The position numbers and the translations under genes were made by a program. From NCBI RefSeq assembly GCF_013122565.1, contig NZ_CP053258.1: a stretch of DNA of 64,000 nt; one strand, given 5' to 3'. Below, piece after piece: positions 7,415 to 15,348 of the stretch. The stretch's first letter is position 1, and the number at the start of each line of letters is the position of its first letter. Below the pieces are notes generated by a model. That model made no database searches and had not been told where the DNA came from. It worked only from the letters and a program-made list of their open reading frames with translations. The DNA is from Escherichia coli. GTDB taxonomy: Bacteria > Pseudomonadota > Gammaproteobacteria > Enterobacterales > Enterobacteriaceae.

Positions 7415-7428
7415 TTACAGAGGTAAAA

Positions 7429-8706
7429 ATGAAAACCAAAGTTGCTGCTATTTATGGCAAGCGGGATGTCCGTCTGCGCGAATTTGAACTGCCAGAAATT
7501 ACCGATAATGAACTGCTGGTGAGTGTAATTTCTGACAGCGTCTGTTTATCGACCTGGAAAGCGGCGTTACTCGGTAGTGAACATAAACGCGTACCCGACG
7601 ATTTAGAAAATCATCCGGTCATTACCGGGCATGAATGTGCCGGGGTTATTGTCGAAGTGGGTAAAAATCTCACTGGCAAATATAAAAAAGGCCAGCGTTT
7701 TGTATTGCAACCGGCGATGGGGTTACCAAGCGGATATTCAGCGGGCTACAGCTACGAATATTTTGGCGGCAATGCCACTTATATGATTATTCCCGAAATC
7801 GCCATTAATTTGGGCTGCGTATTACCGTATCACGGCTCTTATTTTGCTGCGGCGTCGCTGGCAGAGCCTATGTGCTGCATTATTGGTGCTTATCATGCCA
7901 ATTATCACACCACGCAATATGTTTATGAGCATCGCATGGGCGTCAAACCTGGCGGCAATATTGCACTGCTGGCGTGTGCAGGTCCGATGGGCATTGGCGC
8001 TATCGATTACGCCATTAACGGCGGCATACAACCGTCGCGGGTGGTGGTGGTCGATATCGACGACAAACGCCTGGCGCAGGTACAGAAGCTGCTGCCGGTG
8101 GAACTGGCGGCCAGTAAAGGCATTGAGCTGGTGTATGTGAATACCAAAGGGATGAGCGATCCAGTCCAGATGCTGCGGGCGCTTACAGGAGATGCCGGGT
8201 TCGATGACATTTTTGTTTATGCGGCGGTGCCTGCTGTCGTTGAGATGGCTGACGAATTACTGGCGGAAGATGGCTGTCTGAACTTCTTTGCTGGTCCGAC
8301 GGATAAAAACTTCAAAGTGCCGTTTAATTTCTACAACGTCCATTACAACAGCACGCACGTCGTCGGTACATCCGGCGGTTCAACAGACGACATGAAAGAG
8401 GCGATTGCCCTTAGCGCCACAGGGCAGTTACAGCCGTCGTTTATGGTGACCCATATCGGTGGCCTGGATGCGGTGCCAGAAACCGTGCTCAATCTGCCGG
8501 ATATCCCTGGCGGAAAAAAACTCATTTATAACGGCGTGACTATGCCGCTCACTGCCATTGCCGATTTTGCCGAAAAAGGCAAAACCGATCCGCTGTTTAA
8601 AGAGTTGGCGCGGCTGGTTGAGGAAACGCACGGCATCTGGAATGAGCAGGCCGAGATATATCTGCTGGCGCAATTTGGCGTTGATATCGGGGAGGCCGCG
8701 CAATGA
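7429..8706 (+). CDS. yggP: zinc-dependent sugar-phosphate dehydrogenase (sorbose-1-P reductase-like)
   Basis: 425 aa. Confidence 0.85.
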   Translation: MKTKVAAIYGKRDVRLREFELPEITDNELLVSVISDSVCLSTWKAALLGSEHKRVPDDLENHPVITGHECAGVIVEVGKNLTGKYKKGQRFVLQPAMGLPSGYSAGYSYEYFGGNATYMIIPEIAINLGCVLPYHGSYFAAASLAEPMCCIIGAYHANYHTTQYVYEHRMGVKPGGNIALLACAGPMGIGAIDYAINGGIQPSRVVVVDIDDKRLAQVQKLLPVELAASKGIELVYVNTKGMSDPVQMLRALTGDAGFDDIFVYAAVPAVVEMADELLAEDGCLNFFAGPTDKNFKVPFNFYNVHYNSTHVVGTSGGSTDDMKEAIALSATGQLQPSFMVTHIGGLDAVPETVLNLPDIPGGKKLIYNGVTMPLTAIADFAEKGKTDPLFKELARLVEETHGIWNEQAEIYLLAQFGVDIGEAAQ

Positions 8707-9668
8707 TGTCCCTGGCGTGGCCATTATTTCGCGTTACGGAACAGGCAGCGTTGGCTGCCTGGCCGCAAACCGGATGTGGCGACAAAAATAAAATTGATGG
8801 CCTGGCGGTCACCGCGATGCGCCAGGCATTAAACGACGTTGCTTTTCGTGGGCGAGTGGTTATCGGCGAAGGAGAAATTGACCATGCGCCGATGTTGTGG
8901 ATTGGCGAAGAGGTGGGCAAAGGCGATGGGCCAGAAGTCGATATCGCGGTTGACCCGATCGAAGGCACGCGAATGGTGGCGATGGGGCAGAGCAATGCGC
9001 TGGCGGTCATGGCTTTCGCCCCTCGGGATAGCCTGTTACATGCGCCCGATATGTATATGAAAAAGCTGGTTGTTAATCGGCTGGCGGCGGGCGCGATTGA
9101 TCTGTCTTTGCCTCTGACGGACAACCTGCGCAACGTAGCGAAAGCGTTAGGCAAACCGCTGGACAAGCTGCGCATGGTTACGCTGGATAAACCGCGCCTG
9201 AGTGCCGCAATTGAGGAAGCAAAGCAACTGGGCGTGAAGGTTTTCGCTCTGCCGGATGGCGATGTCGCCGCCAGCGTGCTGACCTGCTGGCAGGATAATC
9301 CTTACGACGTGATGTACACCATCGGCGGTGCGCCAGAAGGCGTGATTTCTGCCTGTGCCGTTAAAGCATTAGGCGGGGATATGCAGGCCGAGCTGATTGA
9401 CTTTTGTCAGGCTAAAGGGGATTACACGGAAAATCGGCAGATTGCAGAGCAGGAGCGCAAGCGTTGCAAGGCAATGGGCGTTGACGTTAACCGTGTGTAC
9501 TCGCTCGATGAACTGGTGAGGGGGAACGATATCCTCTTTAGCGCTACGGGCGTGACGGGCGGTGAGCTGGTGAACGGTATCCAACAGACGGCGAATGGGG
9601 TGCGGACGCAGACATTACTGATCGGCGGCGCGGACCAAACGTGTAATATAATAGACTCCCTGCATTGA
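8703..9668 (+). CDS. yggF: fructose-1,6-bisphosphatase class II (GlpX-like)
   Basis: 321 aa; ATG overlaps yggP stop (caATGa). Confidence 0.85.
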   Translation: MMSLAWPLFRVTEQAALAAWPQTGCGDKNKIDGLAVTAMRQALNDVAFRGRVVIGEGEIDHAPMLWIGEEVGKGDGPEVDIAVDPIEGTRMVAMGQSNALAVMAFAPRDSLLHAPDMYMKKLVVNRLAAGAIDLSLPLTDNLRNVAKALGKPLDKLRMVTLDKPRLSAAIEEAKQLGVKVFALPDGDVAASVLTCWQDNPYDVMYTIGGAPEGVISACAVKALGGDMQAELIDFCQAKGDYTENRQIAEQERKRCKAMGVDVNRVYSLDELVRGNDILFSATGVTGGELVNGIQQTANGVRTQTLLIGGADQTCNIIDSLH

Positions 9669-9689
9669 TGGTGATCTATCGGAAGACCA

Positions 9690-10199
9690 ATGGCGACGCT
9701 GACAGAAGATGATGTGCTTGAGCAACTGGATGCACAGGACAATTTATTTTCATTTATGAATACTGCGCATTCTATTTTGCTCCAGGGGATACGCCAGTTT
9801 CTGCCGTCGCTGTTTGTCGATAACGATGAAGAGATCGTCGAATATGCAGTGAAGCCGTTACTCGCCCAAAGCGGCCCGCTTGACGATATTGATGTTGCAC
9901 TGCGTTTGATTTATGCGCTGGGGAAAATGGATAAATGGCTGTACGCCGATATCACGCATTTTTCCCAGTTCTGGCATTACCTGAACGAACAGGATGAAAC
10001 GCCCGGATTTGCCGATGTCATGACCTGGGATTTTATCAGCAACGTCAATAGCATAACCTGCAATGCGACGCTCTATGACGCGTTGAAAGCGATGAAGTTC
10101 GCCGATTTCGCCGTCTGGTCAGAGGCGCGTTTTAGCGGAATGGTCAAAACGGCGCTGACGCTGGCAGTAACGACCACCTTAAAGGAATTAACGCCGTGA
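9690..10199 (+). CDS. yggD: MtlR-like regulator
   Basis: 169 aa. Confidence 0.85.
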   Translation: MATLTEDDVLEQLDAQDNLFSFMNTAHSILLQGIRQFLPSLFVDNDEEIVEYAVKPLLAQSGPLDDIDVALRLIYALGKMDKWLYADITHFSQFWHYLNEQDETPGFADVMTWDFISNVNSITCNATLYDALKAMKFADFAVWSEARFSGMVKTALTLAVTTTLKELTP

Positions 10200-10909
10200 A
10201 AATTGAATTAACGGTGAATGGGCTGAAGATACAGGCACAGTACCAGAACGAAGAGATTGAAAATGTACATAAACCGTTGCTGCGTATGCTGGCGGCCTTA
10301 CAGACGGTAAATCCGCAGCGGCGTACGGTGGTTTTTCTTTGCGCTCCGCCGGGGACGGGTAAATCTACCCTAACTACCTTCTGGGAATATCTCGCGCAAC
10401 AAGACCCGGAACTGCCCGCTATTCAGACGCTGCCGATGGATGGTTTTCACCATTACAATAGCTGGCTGGATGCGCATCAATTGCGCCCCTTCAAAGGCGC
10501 ACCAGAGACATTTGACGTTGCGAAACTGGCGGAAAATCTGCGCCAGGTCGTGGAAGGGGATTGTACGTGGCCGCAGTACGATCGACAAAAGCATGATCCT
10601 GTTGAAGATGCGTTGCACGTTACCGCACCACTCGTCATCGTCGAAGGAAACTGGTTGTTGCTGGACGACGAGAAGTGGTGCCAGCTAGCGCAGTTTTGTG
10701 ATTTCTCGATCTTTATCAATGCGCCAGCTACTGCGTTGCGGGAACGACTGGTGGGGCGCAAGCTGGCGGGAGGGTTATCGCTGGCAGACGCAGAAGCTTT
10801 TTATGACCGTACCGACGGGCCGAATGTTCGCCGGGTGCTGGAAGAGAGTCTGCCTGCAAATTTGACCTTAATGATGACCGCTACGGGTGAATATCGTCTG
10901 GTGGATTAA
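10196..10909 (+). CDS. yggC: P-loop kinase (uridine/pantothenate kinase-like)
   Basis: 237 aa, GTG start overlapping yggD stop (GTGA); Walker A APPGTGKST. Confidence 0.85.
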   Translation: MKIELTVNGLKIQAQYQNEEIENVHKPLLRMLAALQTVNPQRRTVVFLCAPPGTGKSTLTTFWEYLAQQDPELPAIQTLPMDGFHHYNSWLDAHQLRPFKGAPETFDVAKLAENLRQVVEGDCTWPQYDRQKHDPVEDALHVTAPLVIVEGNWLLLDDEKWCQLAQFCDFSIFINAPATALRERLVGRKLAGGLSLADAEAFYDRTDGPNVRRVLEESLPANLTLMMTATGEYRLVD

Positions 10910-11558
10910 CGTTCCTGATTAGACCATCTTCCAGTCGCACCACACGAGAGAAATGACGCCGGGTAAATGCGGCGTCATGACTGATTGCTACGACGCTCGT
11001 GCCTCGCTGGCGGCACTTCTCCAGCCAGCTTTCAAACACGCTCAACCAATTTTCGTCAAAATCCCGACTCGGCTCGTCCAGCAGCAATAGTGGCGGAGAG
11101 AGTGCTTCCAGGCAGGCGACGGCGACCATCCGTCGCTGCGCACTATGCAGATCCAACGGGTGCGCGCTGGCAGTGTCTGCTAACTGACAGCATTGCAGGG
11201 CAGCATGGGTACGTTGAGTGATTTCATCCGCCGGGCATTTTTGCAGTTTCAAACCAAATGCGATCTCGTCAGCGACGGTGCTGTGAAAAAGTTGGTTTTC
11301 CGCTTCCTGAAACAGTACGCCAACCTTTGCCGCGCGCTGGCGGTTTTTCAGGTTTTTCACCGCCTGTTGTTGCAGCATAACCGTACCGGCTGTGGGCGTA
11401 AGAAGACCTGCCATTACTCGTAACAGCGTCGATTTCCCTGCGCCATTGTCGCCGGTCAGCGCCAACCATTCACCTTGTTTGAGTTGCAGAGAAATGTCGC
11501 AAAGACAATCCGTTGCCGCGTCAGGCCAGCGATAAGTTATCTGATTTAACGTTAACAT
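10881..11558 (-). CDS. ABC-type ATPase, ECF transporter A' component
   Basis: Walker A GDNGAGKST, LLLLDEP Walker B; start taken at MLTLNQITY (225 aa); 3' end overlaps yggC 3' end by 29 nt. Confidence 0.75.
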   Translation of the reverse strand: MLTLNQITYRWPDAATDCLCDISLQLKQGEWLALTGDNGAGKSTLLRVMAGLLTPTAGTVMLQQQAVKNLKNRQRAAKVGVLFQEAENQLFHSTVADEIAFGLKLQKCPADEITQRTHAALQCCQLADTASAHPLDLHSAQRRMVAVACLEALSPPLLLLDEPSRDFDENWLSVFESWLEKCRQRGTSVVAISHDAAFTRRHFSRVVRLEDGLIRNVNPPDDIHP

Positions 11559-12229
11559 AGTGGCTGGAGCGCTCCGTTTTGCAATTGCCACGCTTGCTGG
11601 CAGTAGTTCAGGAAAGGTGTGCGATGACGTTCAAAAAGAATAATCAGCGAACCACGTTCAAGCGCCCAGTGTTGTAAGCGCTGCAACAGCATTTCGCTGG
11701 CCTGCGGCGTCAGGCGGCTAAAGGCTTCATCAAGAATTAATAGCTTTGGCTGCATCGCGATAGCGCAGGCGATGACCACGCGCTGTGTCTCTCCACCGGA
11801 GAGTGTTGCCGGGTGACGATGGCGCAACGGCTGGCACTCGGTCAGAGTCAGGGCGGCATCAATCCGCGCCATAATCTCTGCTTCAGCAAGACACAGATTT
11901 TCTGGCCCAAAGGCAACTTCTTCTTCCACGCTAAAGGTACAGCCGGATAGCTGCAAATAGGGCGATTGCTGGACGAGCTGGATGGTGGCGGATTGTTCAT
12001 TAAGCGGGAGATGCCCAATGGGCGTACCGAGGAGCGTCCCCGTGCCTGTTATATCTCCTGGCAGAAAGTCCGGATACCAGCCCGCCATCAGTTGCGCCAG
12101 CGTACTTTTGCCACTGCCGTTGTCACCAAAGATGGCGACCATCCCCGGTTTGACATAGTGAAAGTCATAACAGAACGGAGGATTTGTTGAGTGTGTCGGG
12201 CAATAGCGAAACTGTTCTAACGTAACCAT
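11552..12229 (-). CDS. ABC-type ATPase, ECF transporter A component
   Basis: 225 aa; Walker A GDNGSGKST, signature LSGGETQR, Walker B LLILDEA. Confidence 0.8.
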   Translation of the reverse strand: MVTLEQFRYCPTHSTNPPFCYDFHYVKPGMVAIFGDNGSGKSTLAQLMAGWYPDFLPGDITGTGTLLGTPIGHLPLNEQSATIQLVQQSPYLQLSGCTFSVEEEVAFGPENLCLAEAEIMARIDAALTLTECQPLRHRHPATLSGGETQRVVIACAIAMQPKLLILDEAFSRLTPQASEMLLQRLQHWALERGSLIILFERHRTPFLNYCQQAWQLQNGALQPLC

Positions 12230-12924
12230 ATCCAGGCTCCGAATTCAGCCAGCATCAGCAAGATCATGGTATAACGCGCTACGCGTTGTAGGGTGCTATC
12301 GGCTGGTGCCCACAACGTTGTTCGTCGGTTGTGGATCCGAAATGCCCGCATATCCAGCGCCGCACCGCGGACAGCCAGATCGTTAAGCGCATTGTGTGTT
12401 AGCGGAATAATTAATGCGGGCATCGCGCGTAAACGCTGATACCAGCCTTCATCAAGCGGCACGCCGCGGGCGCGCTGCGCTTCATGGATAATCGCTAATT
12501 GCCGTTTTAATTGCTCAACGACCAATAACGGCCCGGCAAACAGATAAGCGACGCCTGGCGGTAGACGAGAAGCAAACAAAGCGCGGATAAAACATTGCAC
12601 GGGGACGTACTGCATCCACAACTGTGAGGTTGAAACGATAGCCATAATGCGCAACCAGAGTGTAATGGCATACGTCCACCGTTCAGGCGAGCGTGGCGTG
12701 CCGCTAAGCCATTCTGTCAGCCAGCCACCGTGCACCAGCCACAGCCCGGCTCCCAGCGAGAACATCAGCCAGGCGACATATTTTGCCCGCCGCCGCGTGG
12801 CCTTAAGCGCGATAAGGCAGAAAAAGGTCGCCGCGCTATAGACCGGCAAAAGGGTCTGCGCGGGCAGAATAAGCGTGGTGCAGGCCGCCAGCGCCCACAG
12901 CGTTAAGGATGTAAACGGATGCAT
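12217..12924 (-). CDS. ECF transporter transmembrane T component (CbiQ/EcfT family)
   Basis: 235 aa polytopic; conserved ...EAQRARG... coupling motif; ATG directly abuts upstream stop. Confidence 0.75.
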   Translation of the reverse strand: MHPFTSLTLWALAACTTLILPAQTLLPVYSAATFFCLIALKATRRRAKYVAWLMFSLGAGLWLVHGGWLTEWLSGTPRSPERWTYAITLWLRIMAIVSTSQLWMQYVPVQCFIRALFASRLPPGVAYLFAGPLLVVEQLKRQLAIIHEAQRARGVPLDEGWYQRLRAMPALIIPLTHNALNDLAVRGAALDMRAFRIHNRRTTLWAPADSTLQRVARYTMILLMLAEFGAWIWLR

Positions 12925-13503
12925 TTAGCGCACGGCAGCCATTGCCGGAAAATGGCGCGTGGTGCGAATCGGTAGCTGTCGCAGTAAAAGCCAGACAATC
13001 ACCGCTGTAAGAATTTTATCGACCAGGTTTGCGCCTATCACCGTAATCGCCACCGACTCCAACAGGTTTTGCCCCATCGAGTGCATCCAGGCAACGAACA
13101 AATCGGCTCCGCTACCGGTGACACCGCCGAACAGCGCAGTACGCAGCGGTACAGCGACGACCGTTACCGCAAGCGTAATAATCACGCCGCTGACAACGAC
13201 TTTTGGCAGGGTGCGGAACCAACCCGCTCGCGCCAGCCAACCAGCGACCAGGCCTATGACCATCGCGACGGGCGTAAATGCGGCGGCGATCGGGTCGGTC
13301 AGCAATCCCCAAAGTAAATTGGTCAGTAAGCCGGTCAGCATCCCGATCACCGGACCAAGCAGTACCGCGCTAATAAGTGTGCCGATGGAATCGAGAAATA
13401 TAGGTAATTTGACCATGCTGGCCAGTTGCCCGCCGATCATATTGATGGCGATAGATATAACGATTAACACCAGCGCCTGACTGGAAAAGTGGCGACGCGC
13501 CAT
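12925..13503 (-). CDS. small polytopic membrane protein, putative ECF substrate-capture (S) component
   Basis: start chosen at MARRHFSS (192 aa) with RBS gagagg; hydrophobic Gly-rich helices; position in operon. Confidence 0.55.
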   Translation of the reverse strand: MARRHFSSQALVLIVISIAINMIGGQLASMVKLPIFLDSIGTLISAVLLGPVIGMLTGLLTNLLWGLLTDPIAAAFTPVAMVIGLVAGWLARAGWFRTLPKVVVSGVIITLAVTVVAVPLRTALFGGVTGSGADLFVAWMHSMGQNLLESVAITVIGANLVDKILTAVIVWLLLRQLPIRTTRHFPAMAAVR

Positions 13504-13525
13504 ATGAAAACCTCTCTGAAAATAG

Positions 13526-13957
13526 TTATTTAACGGGGGAAATATGCAACTCGTCGTAACCAGAAAGCGCGCAAGGCTGGCGGCTAAACGCCAGTTCCTC
13601 AAGGCAGCCGATCACCAGTTCAAGCGTGGTCCGCACGGTACAGCCGGGCATCATATGACCGCCAAGCATCGTGCCGTGTGGATCGGAAACGCAGAGATGA
13701 AGATGTTCACCACTCTGTTCCAGCGTGCCGTTCAATGCGATGACTTCGAACTTACCGCTTAGTAGGGCCGTGTTTTCTTGCCCGGCATAGCGTAAGGCGA
13801 CGTCAGTCAGACTGCCGGTACAACCTGCAATCCACGCGGCGTGGAGTTGTTGTTGCTGCGCGAAGGCGCGCAATAGGGAGAGAACTTCCTGCCCGGGGAG
13901 CAGGCGCAGCGCGTAAAAGCGTGCGGAGGAAGAATATAGGTAGGGCAATGCCATCAT
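13526..13957 (-). CDS. PCC/DUF296-like protein, first gene of the ECF operon
   Basis: 143 aa; N-terminal ...ARFYALRLLPGQEVLSLL... pattern typical of PPC/DUF296 by recall. Confidence 0.5.
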   Translation of the reverse strand: MMALPYLYSSSARFYALRLLPGQEVLSLLRAFAQQQQLHAAWIAGCTGSLTDVALRYAGQENTALLSGKFEVIALNGTLEQSGEHLHLCVSDPHGTMLGGHMMPGCTVRTTLELVIGCLEELAFSRQPCALSGYDELHISPVK

Positions 13958-14191
13958 TGGAGTACTCCGAAACTCGGACGTATTGCGGATAATATCGACG
14001 CTGCATCAGTCATATTCTGATATAAGTCAGGGTTTGTGACGGCACAACGAAAAGATTTTGCTACGCTTATTCGTGATTCTGCAAAGTGGAATAAATTCCA
14101 CAGGGGCGGGGCTGAAAACGTGACGTAAGTCAGATAATTGTCTTCTTTGACTGGACAATCATTCCTTTTATTCCATGTTTCGCTTATCCTA

Positions 14192-14208
14192 GCTGAAGCG
14201 TTTCAGTC
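14192..14208. promoter_or_regulatory. Cra (FruR)-type operator in the epd promoter region
   Basis: gctgaagcgtttcagtc, a near-palindrome matching the Cra half-sites TGAA-N-CGTTTCA, about 120 bp upstream of epd ATG. Confidence 0.45.
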
Positions 14209-14328
14209 GATTAAATGTTCGACAATTAACCAATCAGTCGCAGTTTGCGACAGGTAAGGTTTCCCCGGACGATTTGCTGGATTACTCTGTCTGGCAAATT
14301 TGCTCAGGGAAAACCTTGCAGGAGATCT

Positions 14329-15348
14329 ATGACCGTACGCGTAGCGATAAATGGCTTCGGTCGCATCGGGCGTAATGTGGTTCGTGCTTTGTATGAATCC
14401 GGACGCCGGGCGGAAATTACCGTGGTGGCAATCAACGAACTGGCGGATGCTGCGGGCATGGCGCATTTGTTGAAATATGACACCAGCCATGGCCGTTTTG
14501 CATGGGAAGTACGACAGGAACGCGATCAGCTTTTTGTTGGTGATGACGCCATCCGCGTATTGCATGAACGTTCACTGCAATCGCTCCCCTGGCGTGAACT
14601 TGGCGTTGATGTAGTCCTCGACTGCACCGGCGTATATGGCTCCCGCGAGCATGGCGAAGCGCATATTGCCGCCGGGGCCAAAAAAGTGCTCTTTTCACAT
14701 CCTGGCAGTAACGATCTCGACGCGACCGTTGTTTACGGCGTCAATCAGGATCAACTTCGTGCGGAACACCGCATCGTTTCTAACGCTTCCTGTACCACGA
14801 ATTGCATAATTCCCGTCATCAAATTGTTAGATGATGCGTACGGTATTGAGTCCGGCACTGTGACCACAATTCACTCCGCCATGCACGATCAACAGGTTAT
14901 TGATGCATACCATCCTGACCTGCGTCGCACCCGGGCAGCCAGCCAGTCGATCATTCCGGTCGATACTAAACTGGCCGCCGGTATCACACGATTTTTTCCG
15001 CAATTTAACGATCGCTTTGAAGCGATTGCGGTACGTGTGCCAACCATAAATGTGACGGCAATCGATTTAAGCGTGACGGTGAAGAAACCTGTAAAAGCCA
15101 ATGAAGTCAACCTGTTGCTGCAAAAAGCAGCACAAGGTGCATTTCATGGTATAGTTGACTATACGGAATTGCCGTTGGTCTCTGTAGATTTTAACCACGA
15201 TCCGCACAGTGCCATTGTCGATGGCACCCAAACCCGGGTCAGTGGCGCACACCTGATCAAAACGTTGGTCTGGTGCGATAACGAATGGGGCTTTGCTAAC
15301 CGAATGCTCGACACGACGTTAGCTATGGCTACTGTTGCTTTCAGGTAA
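14329..15348 (+). CDS. epd: erythrose-4-phosphate dehydrogenase
   Basis: 339 aa from [15 protein letters not shown]. Confidence 0.95.

Follow-up and report, generated by a model that had tools for sequence, protein, structure and literature searches.

In a 64,000-nt stretch of the Escherichia coli genome (contig NZ_CP053258.1 of assembly GCF_013122565.1; hereafter the window), five co-directional open reading frames (ORFs) lie compactly on the minus strand between yggC (10196–10909, plus strand) and epd (14329–15348, plus strand). In this order, they encode a PPC-domain (PCC-domain) protein and the substrate-capture component (S), the coupling component (T) and two ABC ATPases (A1 and A2) of an energy-coupling factor (ECF) transporter (Table 1). 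The gap between the PPC and S genes is 22 nt (13504–13525), and the S and T genes abut without a gap. The T and A1 genes overlap by 13 nt, and the A1 and A2 genes by 7 nt when A2 is taken from the ATG at 11558, which is the start chosen by RefSeq in strain CFT073, or by 40 nt when it is taken from the GTG at 11591. The start assigned to S is an internal ATG within a longer ORF that begins with TTG. At the other end of the operon, the 3′ end of A2 overlaps that of the convergent yggC by 29 nt (10881–10909). The ORF list of the window contains no sixth small membrane gene in the operon. An earlier note on this DNA, made from the sequence alone, had described the five ORFs, their tight spacing and the overlap with yggC, and all of these descriptions were reproduced.

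Table 1. Coordinates of the operon and associated features in the window
Feature	Position	Strand	Remarks
PPC/PCC-domain protein	13526–13957	-	143 amino acids; the second ATG, at 13954, is the start in RefSeq orthologues
ECF S (substrate-capture) component	12925–13503	-	192 amino acids; CD3073-like superfamily
ECF T (coupling) component	12217–12924	-	235 amino acids; A-Q-x-A-R-G coupling motif conserved
ABC ATPase A1	11552–12229	-	225 amino acids
ABC ATPase A2	10881–11558 (ATG) or 10881–11591 (GTG)	-	225 amino acids from the ATG
Predicted FNR-type box core TGACTTATATCA (TGATTTATATCA in other genera)	14018–14029	-	Conserved block TGAyTTATATCA in 11 leaders
Predicted -10 hexamer TATTAT	13989–13994	-	Conserved as GATATTATC across genera
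Conserved palindrome TCCGAGTTTCGGA	13965–13978	-	At the predicted 5′ end of the mRNA
Segment without a counterpart in K-12-type genomes	10841–14107		3267 nt, compared with 132 nt in cluster-less E. coli (blastn, one genome)
3′ part of yggC in the cluster-bearing haplotype	10676–10909	+	Codons 161–237

The family assignments confirmed that these genes form a genuine ECF-type (S/T/A/A′) operon. In a Pfam search, the first protein matched PCC (PF03479, E = 2.3e-26), and this whole-domain profile match is accompanied by the PPC fold. The S protein matched ECF_trnsprt (PF12822, E = 1.2e-8), and its best NCBIfam match was NF045596, 'CD3073 family putative ECF transporter S component' (E = 1e-39). 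The score of 136.1 bits misses the equivalog cutoff of 180, and S therefore belongs to a sister subfamily and is not a member of the equivalog itself. Five to six hydrophobic segments are present in S and none in the PPC protein. The match of T to CbiQ (PF02361) was weak (E = 1.7e-4); the Ala-Arg-Gly motif at residues 151–153 and a second motif, R-x-F, are each at least 90% conserved in 74 orthologues. The best NCBIfam matches of A1 were the ECF/CbiO ATPase families TIGR04520 and TIGR01166, and that of A2 was TIGR04521, with scores of 120–151 bits against cutoffs of 315–330. These results support the assignments in the earlier note of a PCC/DUF296-like head gene, a polytopic S-like protein and a CbiQ/EcfT-like T component with an Ala-Arg-Gly motif.

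Conservation of the five-gene module

One genome per species was scanned with a nine-sequence alignment of S components, which yielded 80 loci, and the window proteins were then compared with all ORFs by phmmer. Of the 80 loci, 78 have the order PPC-S-T-A1-A2, with the PPC gene directly upstream of S; the remaining two, both in Kaistia, are S genes that stand alone. The loci are distributed over five phyla, namely Pseudomonadota (alpha, beta and gamma classes), Desulfobacterota, Synergistota, Spirochaetota and Chloroflexota, and throughout them the PPC and S genes are separated by small gaps or overlap by 4 nt. In Citrobacter sp. R56, which is counted among the 78, the two genes are joined by in-frame read-through into a PPC-S fusion (7428–8579 of that locus). 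This is a single case, and no such fusion was found among 150 representatives of the S family. A PPC gene also lies upstream of S in a metagenomic relative, in which S is 47% identical, and no PPC gene was found beside the S homologues examined at 45% identity or less. Clustering of the flanking genes of the 80 loci revealed no family other than the five genes that is common across phyla, only lineage-specific synteny. Because the same gene order is kept in 78 of the 80 loci and in five phyla, the partnership between the PPC protein and the ECF transporter is, judged from gene order, real and not incidental, and the proposal of an ECF-type operon headed by a PPC gene is borne out.

All five genes are under purifying selection, with ratios of nonsynonymous to synonymous divergence (dN/dS) of 0.02–0.19 in comparisons with E. 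whittamii, Citrobacter, Klebsiella and Atlantibacter. The strongest constraint acts on S (0.02–0.05). The synonymous divergence between genera (dS) is saturating, at 1.5–3. Some lineages show fused forms of the module: in Synergistaceae (four loci), S is followed by a single ORF of 690–830 amino acids, presumably comprising T and the ATPases, and in Paracoccus A1 and A2 are fused.

Clues to the substrate

The superfamily of S comprises 737 representatives at E < 1e-10, including S-T fusion proteins. An S-like domain was also found fused to the N-terminus of histidine kinases (447–935 amino acids; three representatives), which suggests that these kinases have adopted an ECF S fold for sensing. 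In the sister S subfamilies (34–45% identity), S-T-A-A operons contain a cytoplasmic salvage enzyme instead of the PPC protein. In three independent contexts, this enzyme is a RihA/RihC-like nucleoside hydrolase, sometimes accompanied by a ribokinase, a GntR protein or a 5′-nucleotidase. Another sister operon contains a protein that exceeds the cutoff of NF045597, 'CD3072 family TudS-related putative desulfidase'; TudS enzymes desulfurize thiouracil and 4-thio-UMP (PMC10611767). By analogy, the PPC protein would fill the 'embedded enzyme' slot in the PPC-linked subfamily.

Approximately 30 immediate neighbours of the operon were annotated with NCBIfam. A DsrE-family gene, whose product matches the C-terminal half of YedF, is present directly upstream of PPC in seven Chloroflexota and two betaproteobacterial loci, at a distance of about 10 nt in Chloroflexota. 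Genes for YedE/YeeE-family membrane proteins adjoin the operon in Morganella and Brucella, TehB in Limnobaculum and a taurine-binding-protein gene in Rhizobium. In a spirochaete, a LysR-type regulator of the selenium-metabolism type (246 bits, just under the cutoff of 250) is divergent to the operon, and a heavy-metal P-type ATPase gene lies downstream in two Synergistaceae loci. A SelD query sequence had no hit in any locus. A scan of nine diverse loci at Rfam gathering thresholds detected no riboswitches, only two tRNAs, and a scan of positions 10500–14600 of the window by E-value yielded nothing credible, in agreement with the statement of the earlier note that the leader contains no THI-box, B12 or FMN riboswitch. 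The best guess is that the substrate is nucleobase- or nucleoside-like and possibly bears sulfur or selenium, which we offer as a lead and not as a finding.

It is also conceivable, but unlikely, that the system imports Co2+ or Ni2+, with the three-histidine site of the PPC protein described below serving as a cytoplasmic metallochaperone or as a metal sensor for the imported ion. The T and A components match the CbiQ and CbiO families, but such similarity is generic to all ECF modules, and the suggestion of Co2+ import for the orthologous Salmonella operon, which PMC11481890 cites from a thesis, rests on these generic names. A metal importer is likewise what the legacy annotation 'cobalt transport' implies. 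The S component, in contrast, matches PF12822 and the CD3073-like family and shows no match to CbiM, NikM or CbiN, and its N-terminus is variable across the family, with no conserved N-terminal metal-binding motif. The Salmonella operon is induced anaerobically together with the nik genes (PMC11481890), whereas neither the leader in the window nor the nine diverse loci contain a cobalamin, NiCo or other riboswitch. The zinc bound by relatives of the PPC protein through a conserved histidine triad and the P-type ATPase in the two Synergistaceae loci would fit a metal, while the sister subfamilies are linked to nucleoside and thiouracil salvage enzymes. E. coli is not known to make B12 de novo, for which it would need Co2+. 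We therefore regard Co2+ as an unlikely and poorly supported substrate.

Within the class of small organic substrates, a more specific scheme can be drawn, in which the PPC-ECF system would take up and process a sulfur- or selenium-bearing nucleobase or nucleoside of the thio- or seleno-uracil type, or a related small sulfur or selenium compound. FNR would activate the system under anaerobiosis, and the PPC protein would be the zinc-dependent equivalent of the TudS-like desulfidase, a [4Fe-4S] protein, of the sister operons. This scheme is built on the TudS-related and nucleoside hydrolase genes of the sister operons and on the DsrE/YedF, YedE/YeeE, LysR, TehB and taurine-related neighbours, and in this detailed form we consider it a long shot. 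If it were true, it would provide the first biochemical function for a prokaryotic PPC/DUF296 protein and would define a new route of salvage for Salmonella and for the majority of E. coli pathogens.

The PPC protein as a putative metal-dependent protein

Among 79 orthologues of the PPC protein, residues R18, P21, G48, S49, R56, A58, E71, H85, H87, G95, H101, T110, T111, E113, R126, E136 and L137 are invariant and D92 is conserved in 99%, whereas no cysteine is invariant. A profile search of the PDB copy, in which the PPC/DUF296 family is represented by at least seven solved structures, retrieved the Salmonella orthologue (2HX0/2NMU, E = 6e-64; approximately 78% identity to 2HX0), as well as VCA0587 of Vibrio cholerae (2P6Y), PH0802 (2DT4) and AF0104 (2H6L). 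In the comparison of folds, the zinc protein PTD012 scored 5.9, and no DNA-binding fold had a comparable score. A phmmer match to the tRNA adenosine deaminase 2B3J (E = 0.009) weakened to E = 0.43 with a profile and was dismissed as chance.

H85, H87 and H101 align with the H-x-H...GGH residues of AF0104. In the trimeric structure 2H6L, each monomer binds a zinc ion through three conserved histidines and a tyrosine, with an acetate in the same cleft, and one distant template for zinc binding is an acetolactate-decarboxylase-like protein (PMC1933227). The fold of the PPC protein resembles that of acetolactate decarboxylase; the possibility that it is itself an alpha-acetolactate decarboxylase was rejected, as there is no significant sequence similarity and no two-domain architecture. 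From these features, we consider it more likely that the PPC protein depends on a metal and either acts on or binds small molecules than that it is a DNA-binding protein. We know of no PPC protein with a known biochemical function.

RefSeq names the protein 'PPC domain-containing DNA-binding protein', and it could accordingly be a transcriptional regulator, or autoregulator, of the ECF operon. It is encoded by the first gene, the palindrome TCCGAGTyTCGGA at the predicted transcript start is a possible operator, and the thesis cited for Salmonella, by its title, treats STM3071 as a potential regulator. We argue, however, that the label has been inherited from the plant AHL factors, in which the AT-hook, and not the PPC domain, contacts DNA. 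The PPC protein of the window is cytoplasmic and acidic (pI 5.8) and contains no AT-hook (R-G-R-P) motif, and its invariant residues resemble a metal or ligand site. Regulators of other kinds are found with these genes: a LysR-type regulator is divergent to the operon at some loci, and the gene of the V. cholerae paralogue VCA0587 overlaps by 4 nt a TetR-family gene with which it would be co-transcribed. DNA binding by the PPC protein is thus unlikely, and we regard its role as a regulator of the operon as improbable. The VCA0587 gene lies next to two divergent glutathione S-transferase (GST) genes and this locus shows no link to an ECF transporter; in Cyanobium, a PPC paralogue forms a co-transcribed-type pair with a GNAT gene.

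Leader region and predicted regulation

We aligned the epd–PPC intergenic regions of 11 Enterobacteriaceae. One conserved block is a predicted FNR-type box, the core of which is TGAC-N4-ATCA in the window and begins with TGAT in other genera (consensus TTGAT-N4-ATCAA). Its centre is located 29.5 nt upstream of the TATTAT hexamer, which corresponds to the class II (-41.5) geometry. A simple sigma-70 scan missed this promoter because it has no -35 match, as expected for an activator-dependent promoter. The Salmonella operon has been reported to be anaerobically activated (PMC11481890). The operon in the window is probably transcribed from a predicted class II FNR-dependent promoter that would be active under anaerobiosis, with a predicted transcription start near 13981–13983.

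The palindrome at the predicted 5′ end of the transcript is part of a block, ACGTCCGAGTyTCGGAGT, that is nearly invariant in the 11 leaders, and its 3′ arm covers the Shine-Dalgarno sequence GGAG (13965–13968). TCCGAGTTTCGGA may be an RNA hairpin that masks the Shine-Dalgarno sequence, or an operator.

Other elements were also observed. A near-consensus Cra (FruR) box, ACTGAAACGCTTCAGC (14192–14207), and a CRP-like site, TCTGACTTACGTCACG (14119–14134), are located in the part of the intergenic region that is common with K-12; both show conservation across Enterobacteriaceae, where they presumably act on epd-pgk-fbaA. Near the right edge of the segment missing from K-12 is GTGGAATTTATTCCAC (14086–14101), a perfect palindrome of 16 bp, of which other genera conserve only the TTTATTCCA half. 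Downstream of yggC in K-12-type genomes, TTTATTCCAG and CTGGAATAAA occur about 25 nt apart. In addition, a table of sigma-54 chromatin immunoprecipitation results lists an intragenic binding site within Salmonella STM3072. Its counterpart in the window (13070–13087, plus strand) was rejected because its -24 element (TGCCCC) no longer contains the GG and the site is not conserved.

An asymmetric pair of ATPases

A1 has a canonical Walker A motif, Q-loop, Walker B motif and signature (LSGGETQR, conforming to LSGGE-x-QR), and its H-loop histidine is replaced: the sequence is ILFERH in the window, and ILFER is followed by N, H or T in the family. A2, conversely, has canonical Walker A, Q-loop, Walker B and H-loop (SHD) motifs, and its signature is degenerate, being LHSAQRRM in the window and LH[TASV][AG]QRRM in 73 orthologues. 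The statement in the earlier note that both ATPases have intact Walker A/B and signature motifs thus holds for the Walker motifs of both proteins and for the signature of A1, but not for that of A2. A survey of motifs and C-termini showed that both deviations are kept in approximately 72 orthologues from all phyla. ABC dimers assemble in a head-to-tail geometry with composite ATP sites, and this geometry would place the deviations of A1 and A2 in one and the same composite site, leaving one consensus and one degenerate site. Judged from these alignments, the degenerate ATP site is a family-wide feature and not the result of local decay.

The C-termini vary between lineages. A1 lacks a C-terminal extension of 53–60 residues in Enterobacteriaceae and Wohlfahrtiimonas, whereas every other lineage has it. 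In Enterobacteriaceae, and in several further lineages as well, A2 is shorter by 10–20 C-terminal residues. A1 is split into two ORFs (9269–9739 and 9749–9952 of that locus) in the type strain of E. albertii (NBRC 107761), which may reflect a pseudogene or an assembly error.

The Enterobacteriaceae version could, in principle, be a decaying or functionally crippled relic, and the missing stretch of about 55 C-terminal residues of A1, confined to Enterobacteriaceae and Wohlfahrtiimonas, the degenerate ATP site, the split A1 of E. albertii and the lack of the operon in approximately 39% of complete E. coli genomes might be taken as signs of this. Nevertheless, all five genes have dN/dS values of 0.02–0.19 at a dS of 1.5–3, the ORFs are intact in about a dozen genera of Enterobacteriaceae, the degenerate site is conserved in the whole family, and the expression of the Salmonella orthologue is regulated (PMC11481890). 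A relic is thus very improbable.

Distribution in E. coli and history of the locus

A megablast search against 5426 complete E. coli genomes located the entire block in 3318 (approximately 61%), leaving approximately 39% without it. In the genomes that contain the block, besides the PPC gene named above, RefSeq annotates an 'ECF transporter S component', an 'energy-coupling factor transporter transmembrane component T' and two copies of 'ABC transporter ATP-binding protein'. In the annotation of K-12 MG1655, yggC directly adjoins epd and the operon is absent. The block is thus accessory within E. coli and missing from K-12, as the earlier note had proposed.

The operon adjoins epd, divergent from epd-pgk, in all 25 Enterobacteriaceae loci, which represent about a dozen genera, including Escherichia, Citrobacter, Klebsiella, Kluyvera, Atlantibacter, Silvania, Pseudescherichia, Superficieibacter and Phytobacter. 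In 12 of these 25 loci, yggC-fumE-yggF-yggP is present on the other side, and the same convergent overlap with yggC is found in E. albertii, E. whittamii and Citrobacter. The sequence divergence of the operon parallels that of the flanking core genes.

Comparison of the yggC alleles provided further evidence on the history of the locus. The cluster-type and K-12-type alleles share 97% amino acid identity over codons 1–160, but only 64% over the last 77 codons. The cluster-type 3′ end is common to E. albertii (95%) and E. whittamii (90%) and is otherwise closest to Citrobacter (74–75%), and it is the K-12-type 3′ end that is the outlier. The K-12-type yggC is thus a mosaic whose C-terminal 77 codons are as divergent as those of other genera, which implies that this segment would have been imported from some other donor. 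The drop in identity over the last 77 codons points to recombinational replacement, and the junction in yggC is therefore not an insertion junction. The most parsimonious reading of these data is that the operon is ancestral at the epd site of Enterobacteriaceae and that K-12-type strains lost it by allelic replacement. Recombination would have imported a divergent yggC 3′ end together with operon-free intergenic DNA, removing approximately 3.3 kb. The earlier note had viewed the block as inserted between yggC and epd, with the junction inside the terminal codons of yggC. Neither point can be maintained, given the constant site beside epd and the extent of the yggC divergence.

The GC content of the operon (55.3%) is higher than that of the whole window (51.5%), as the earlier note had judged by eye, but the signal is weak; the operon is within the top 4.6% of equal-sized windows only and the neighbouring core gene yggF has a GC content of 56.5%, and we rejected GC content as a sign of foreign origin. 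That the block is a recently acquired genomic islet of some E. coli, as its absence from K-12 and its slightly elevated GC content might suggest, is hardly credible in view of its constant position beside epd, often with yggC opposite in convergent overlap, the relationships of the yggC 3′ ends, the divergence parallel to that of core genes, the matching GC content of yggF, and the absence at the block of a tRNA gene, of flanking repeats beyond chance length and, around the 25 loci, of any recurring mobility-gene family (family clustering, which showed core synteny only; neighbours were not individually annotated).

The window is 97–98% identical to the nearest of the 5426 complete E. coli genomes and approximately 93.7% identical to E. 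albertii, which suggests that it derives from a divergent E. coli lineage or a cryptic clade. In CFT073, yggF, upstream of fumE, is annotated as a partial pseudogene and a short fragment, whereas yggF is intact in the window (8703–9668).

Proposed mechanism and significance

The interpretation that we prefer, with a probability of roughly 0.55, is that the operon encodes a dedicated (group I style) ECF importer of a small organic micronutrient or salvaged metabolite, which has its own cytoplasmic partner protein and an anaerobic FNR promoter and is encoded at an ancestral locus that was lost in approximately 39% of E. coli. In this mechanism, S would capture the substrate in the inner membrane and T would couple S to the asymmetric A1/A2 pair, driving transport in a direction that we infer to be inward. 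The catalytic ATP site would be formed by the Walker A/B motifs and H-loop of A2 with the LSGGE signature of A1, and the degenerate site by A1, which lacks the H-loop histidine, with the LHSAQ signature of A2. The soluble PPC protein, with its three-histidine, zinc-type site, most likely converts or traps the imported compound. The operon would probably be transcribed under anaerobiosis from the class II FNR-dependent promoter, and the ancestral locus beside epd would have been lost by allelic replacement in K-12 and other operon-free E. coli.

Several observations weigh against this interpretation. The match of T to CbiQ is weak, and every ATPase and S match is below its NCBIfam equivalog cutoff. 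C-terminal residues of EcfA take part in dimerization in characterized proteins, and, given the C-terminal losses of the ATPases in Enterobacteriaceae, the complex may work differently there. The three-histidine site of the PPC protein could equally serve metal sensing or delivery, and the suggestion made for Salmonella, which PMC11481890 attributes to a thesis, is Co2+ import with STM3071 as a regulator. The neighbouring genes are heterogeneous, with sulfur- or selenium-related genes in five lineages, a P-type ATPase in Synergistaceae and otherwise unrelated genes. Finally, the FNR box of the window differs from the 14-nt consensus TTGAT-N4-ATCAA at three positions, and its core motif occurs eight times per 64 kb, compared with about four expected. 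Since this core is common by chance, the support for the predicted promoter comes from its conservation, its geometry and the anaerobic activation reported in Salmonella.

ECF transporters are mostly regarded as systems by which Gram-positive bacteria take up vitamins and metals; K-12, to our knowledge, has none. The present operon would represent an ECF importer that is native to Enterobacteriaceae, retained in Salmonella and in approximately 61% of complete E. coli genomes, and apparently induced under anaerobic conditions. Its fixed partnership with the PPC protein offers an experimental handle on the prokaryotic PPC/DUF296 domain, a family with a large plant AHL branch, and the family-wide degenerate ATP site offers a natural system in which to examine how ECF modules might use ATP asymmetrically. 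The locus has existing annotation and does not represent a new type of system, and the practical yield will be modest until the substrate is found. What goes beyond the existing annotation is the conservation of the PPC-ECF combination across phyla, the zinc-site character of the PPC protein, the degenerate ATP site, the truncation of the ATPases specific to Enterobacteriaceae, the link of the sister families to nucleoside and thiouracil salvage, and the predicted FNR promoter.

Comparison with known systems

The direct orthologues of the operon are STM3071–STM3075 of Salmonella enterica (PPC structure 2HX0/2NMU), which occupy the same site beside epd in the same order and show no structural difference; the published suggestion of Co2+ and of a regulator for this operon is not backed by sequence evidence here. 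PMC11481890 refers to the Salmonella operon as a putative ECF operon of five genes that is also conserved among pathogenic E. coli, and C_RS16650–C_RS16670 of E. coli CFT073 (RefSeq) is the same five-gene operon, in the same order and beside epd. Literature searches on CD3073, STM3071–3075 and DUF296, yggC or TudS with ECF returned only the mention in mBio in 2024, the sigma-54 table entry and a firestar note on 2H6L.

Like the group I ECF transporters BioMNY, CbiMNQO/NikMNQO and QrtTUVW, the system has S, T and two ATPase genes in one operon, a T component with the Ala-Arg-Gly coupling motif, and a small polytopic S component. It differs from them in that the operon begins with an additional, fifth gene for a soluble PPC protein and in that one composite ATP site is degenerate family-wide, in having an S component that is neither CbiM/NikM nor BioY, and, in Enterobacteriaceae, in having ATPases of 225 amino acids without a C-terminal extension. 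Unlike CbiMNQO and NikMNQO in particular, it has no CbiM/NikM-type S component, CbiN/NikN partner or riboswitch. The closest S family is found in the CD3073 (NF045596)/CD3072 (NF045597) systems and their nucleoside-hydrolase relatives, which likewise combine S-T-A-A with an embedded cytoplasmic protein, but in which a TudS-like desulfidase or a nucleoside hydrolase takes the place of the PPC protein.

The PPC protein belongs to an ECF operon, unlike the VCA0587-type paralogues with their TetR and GST genes, and it is distinct from the two-domain enzyme alpha-acetolactate decarboxylase. It shares the PF03479 domain and the core motif G-x-F-E-I/V-x-S-L with the plant AT-hook (AHL) factors, but has no AT-hook, is acidic, retains the histidine triad of the bacterial subfamily and is encoded inside a transporter operon. 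The system is best classed as an ECF importer with a fixed fifth soluble component.

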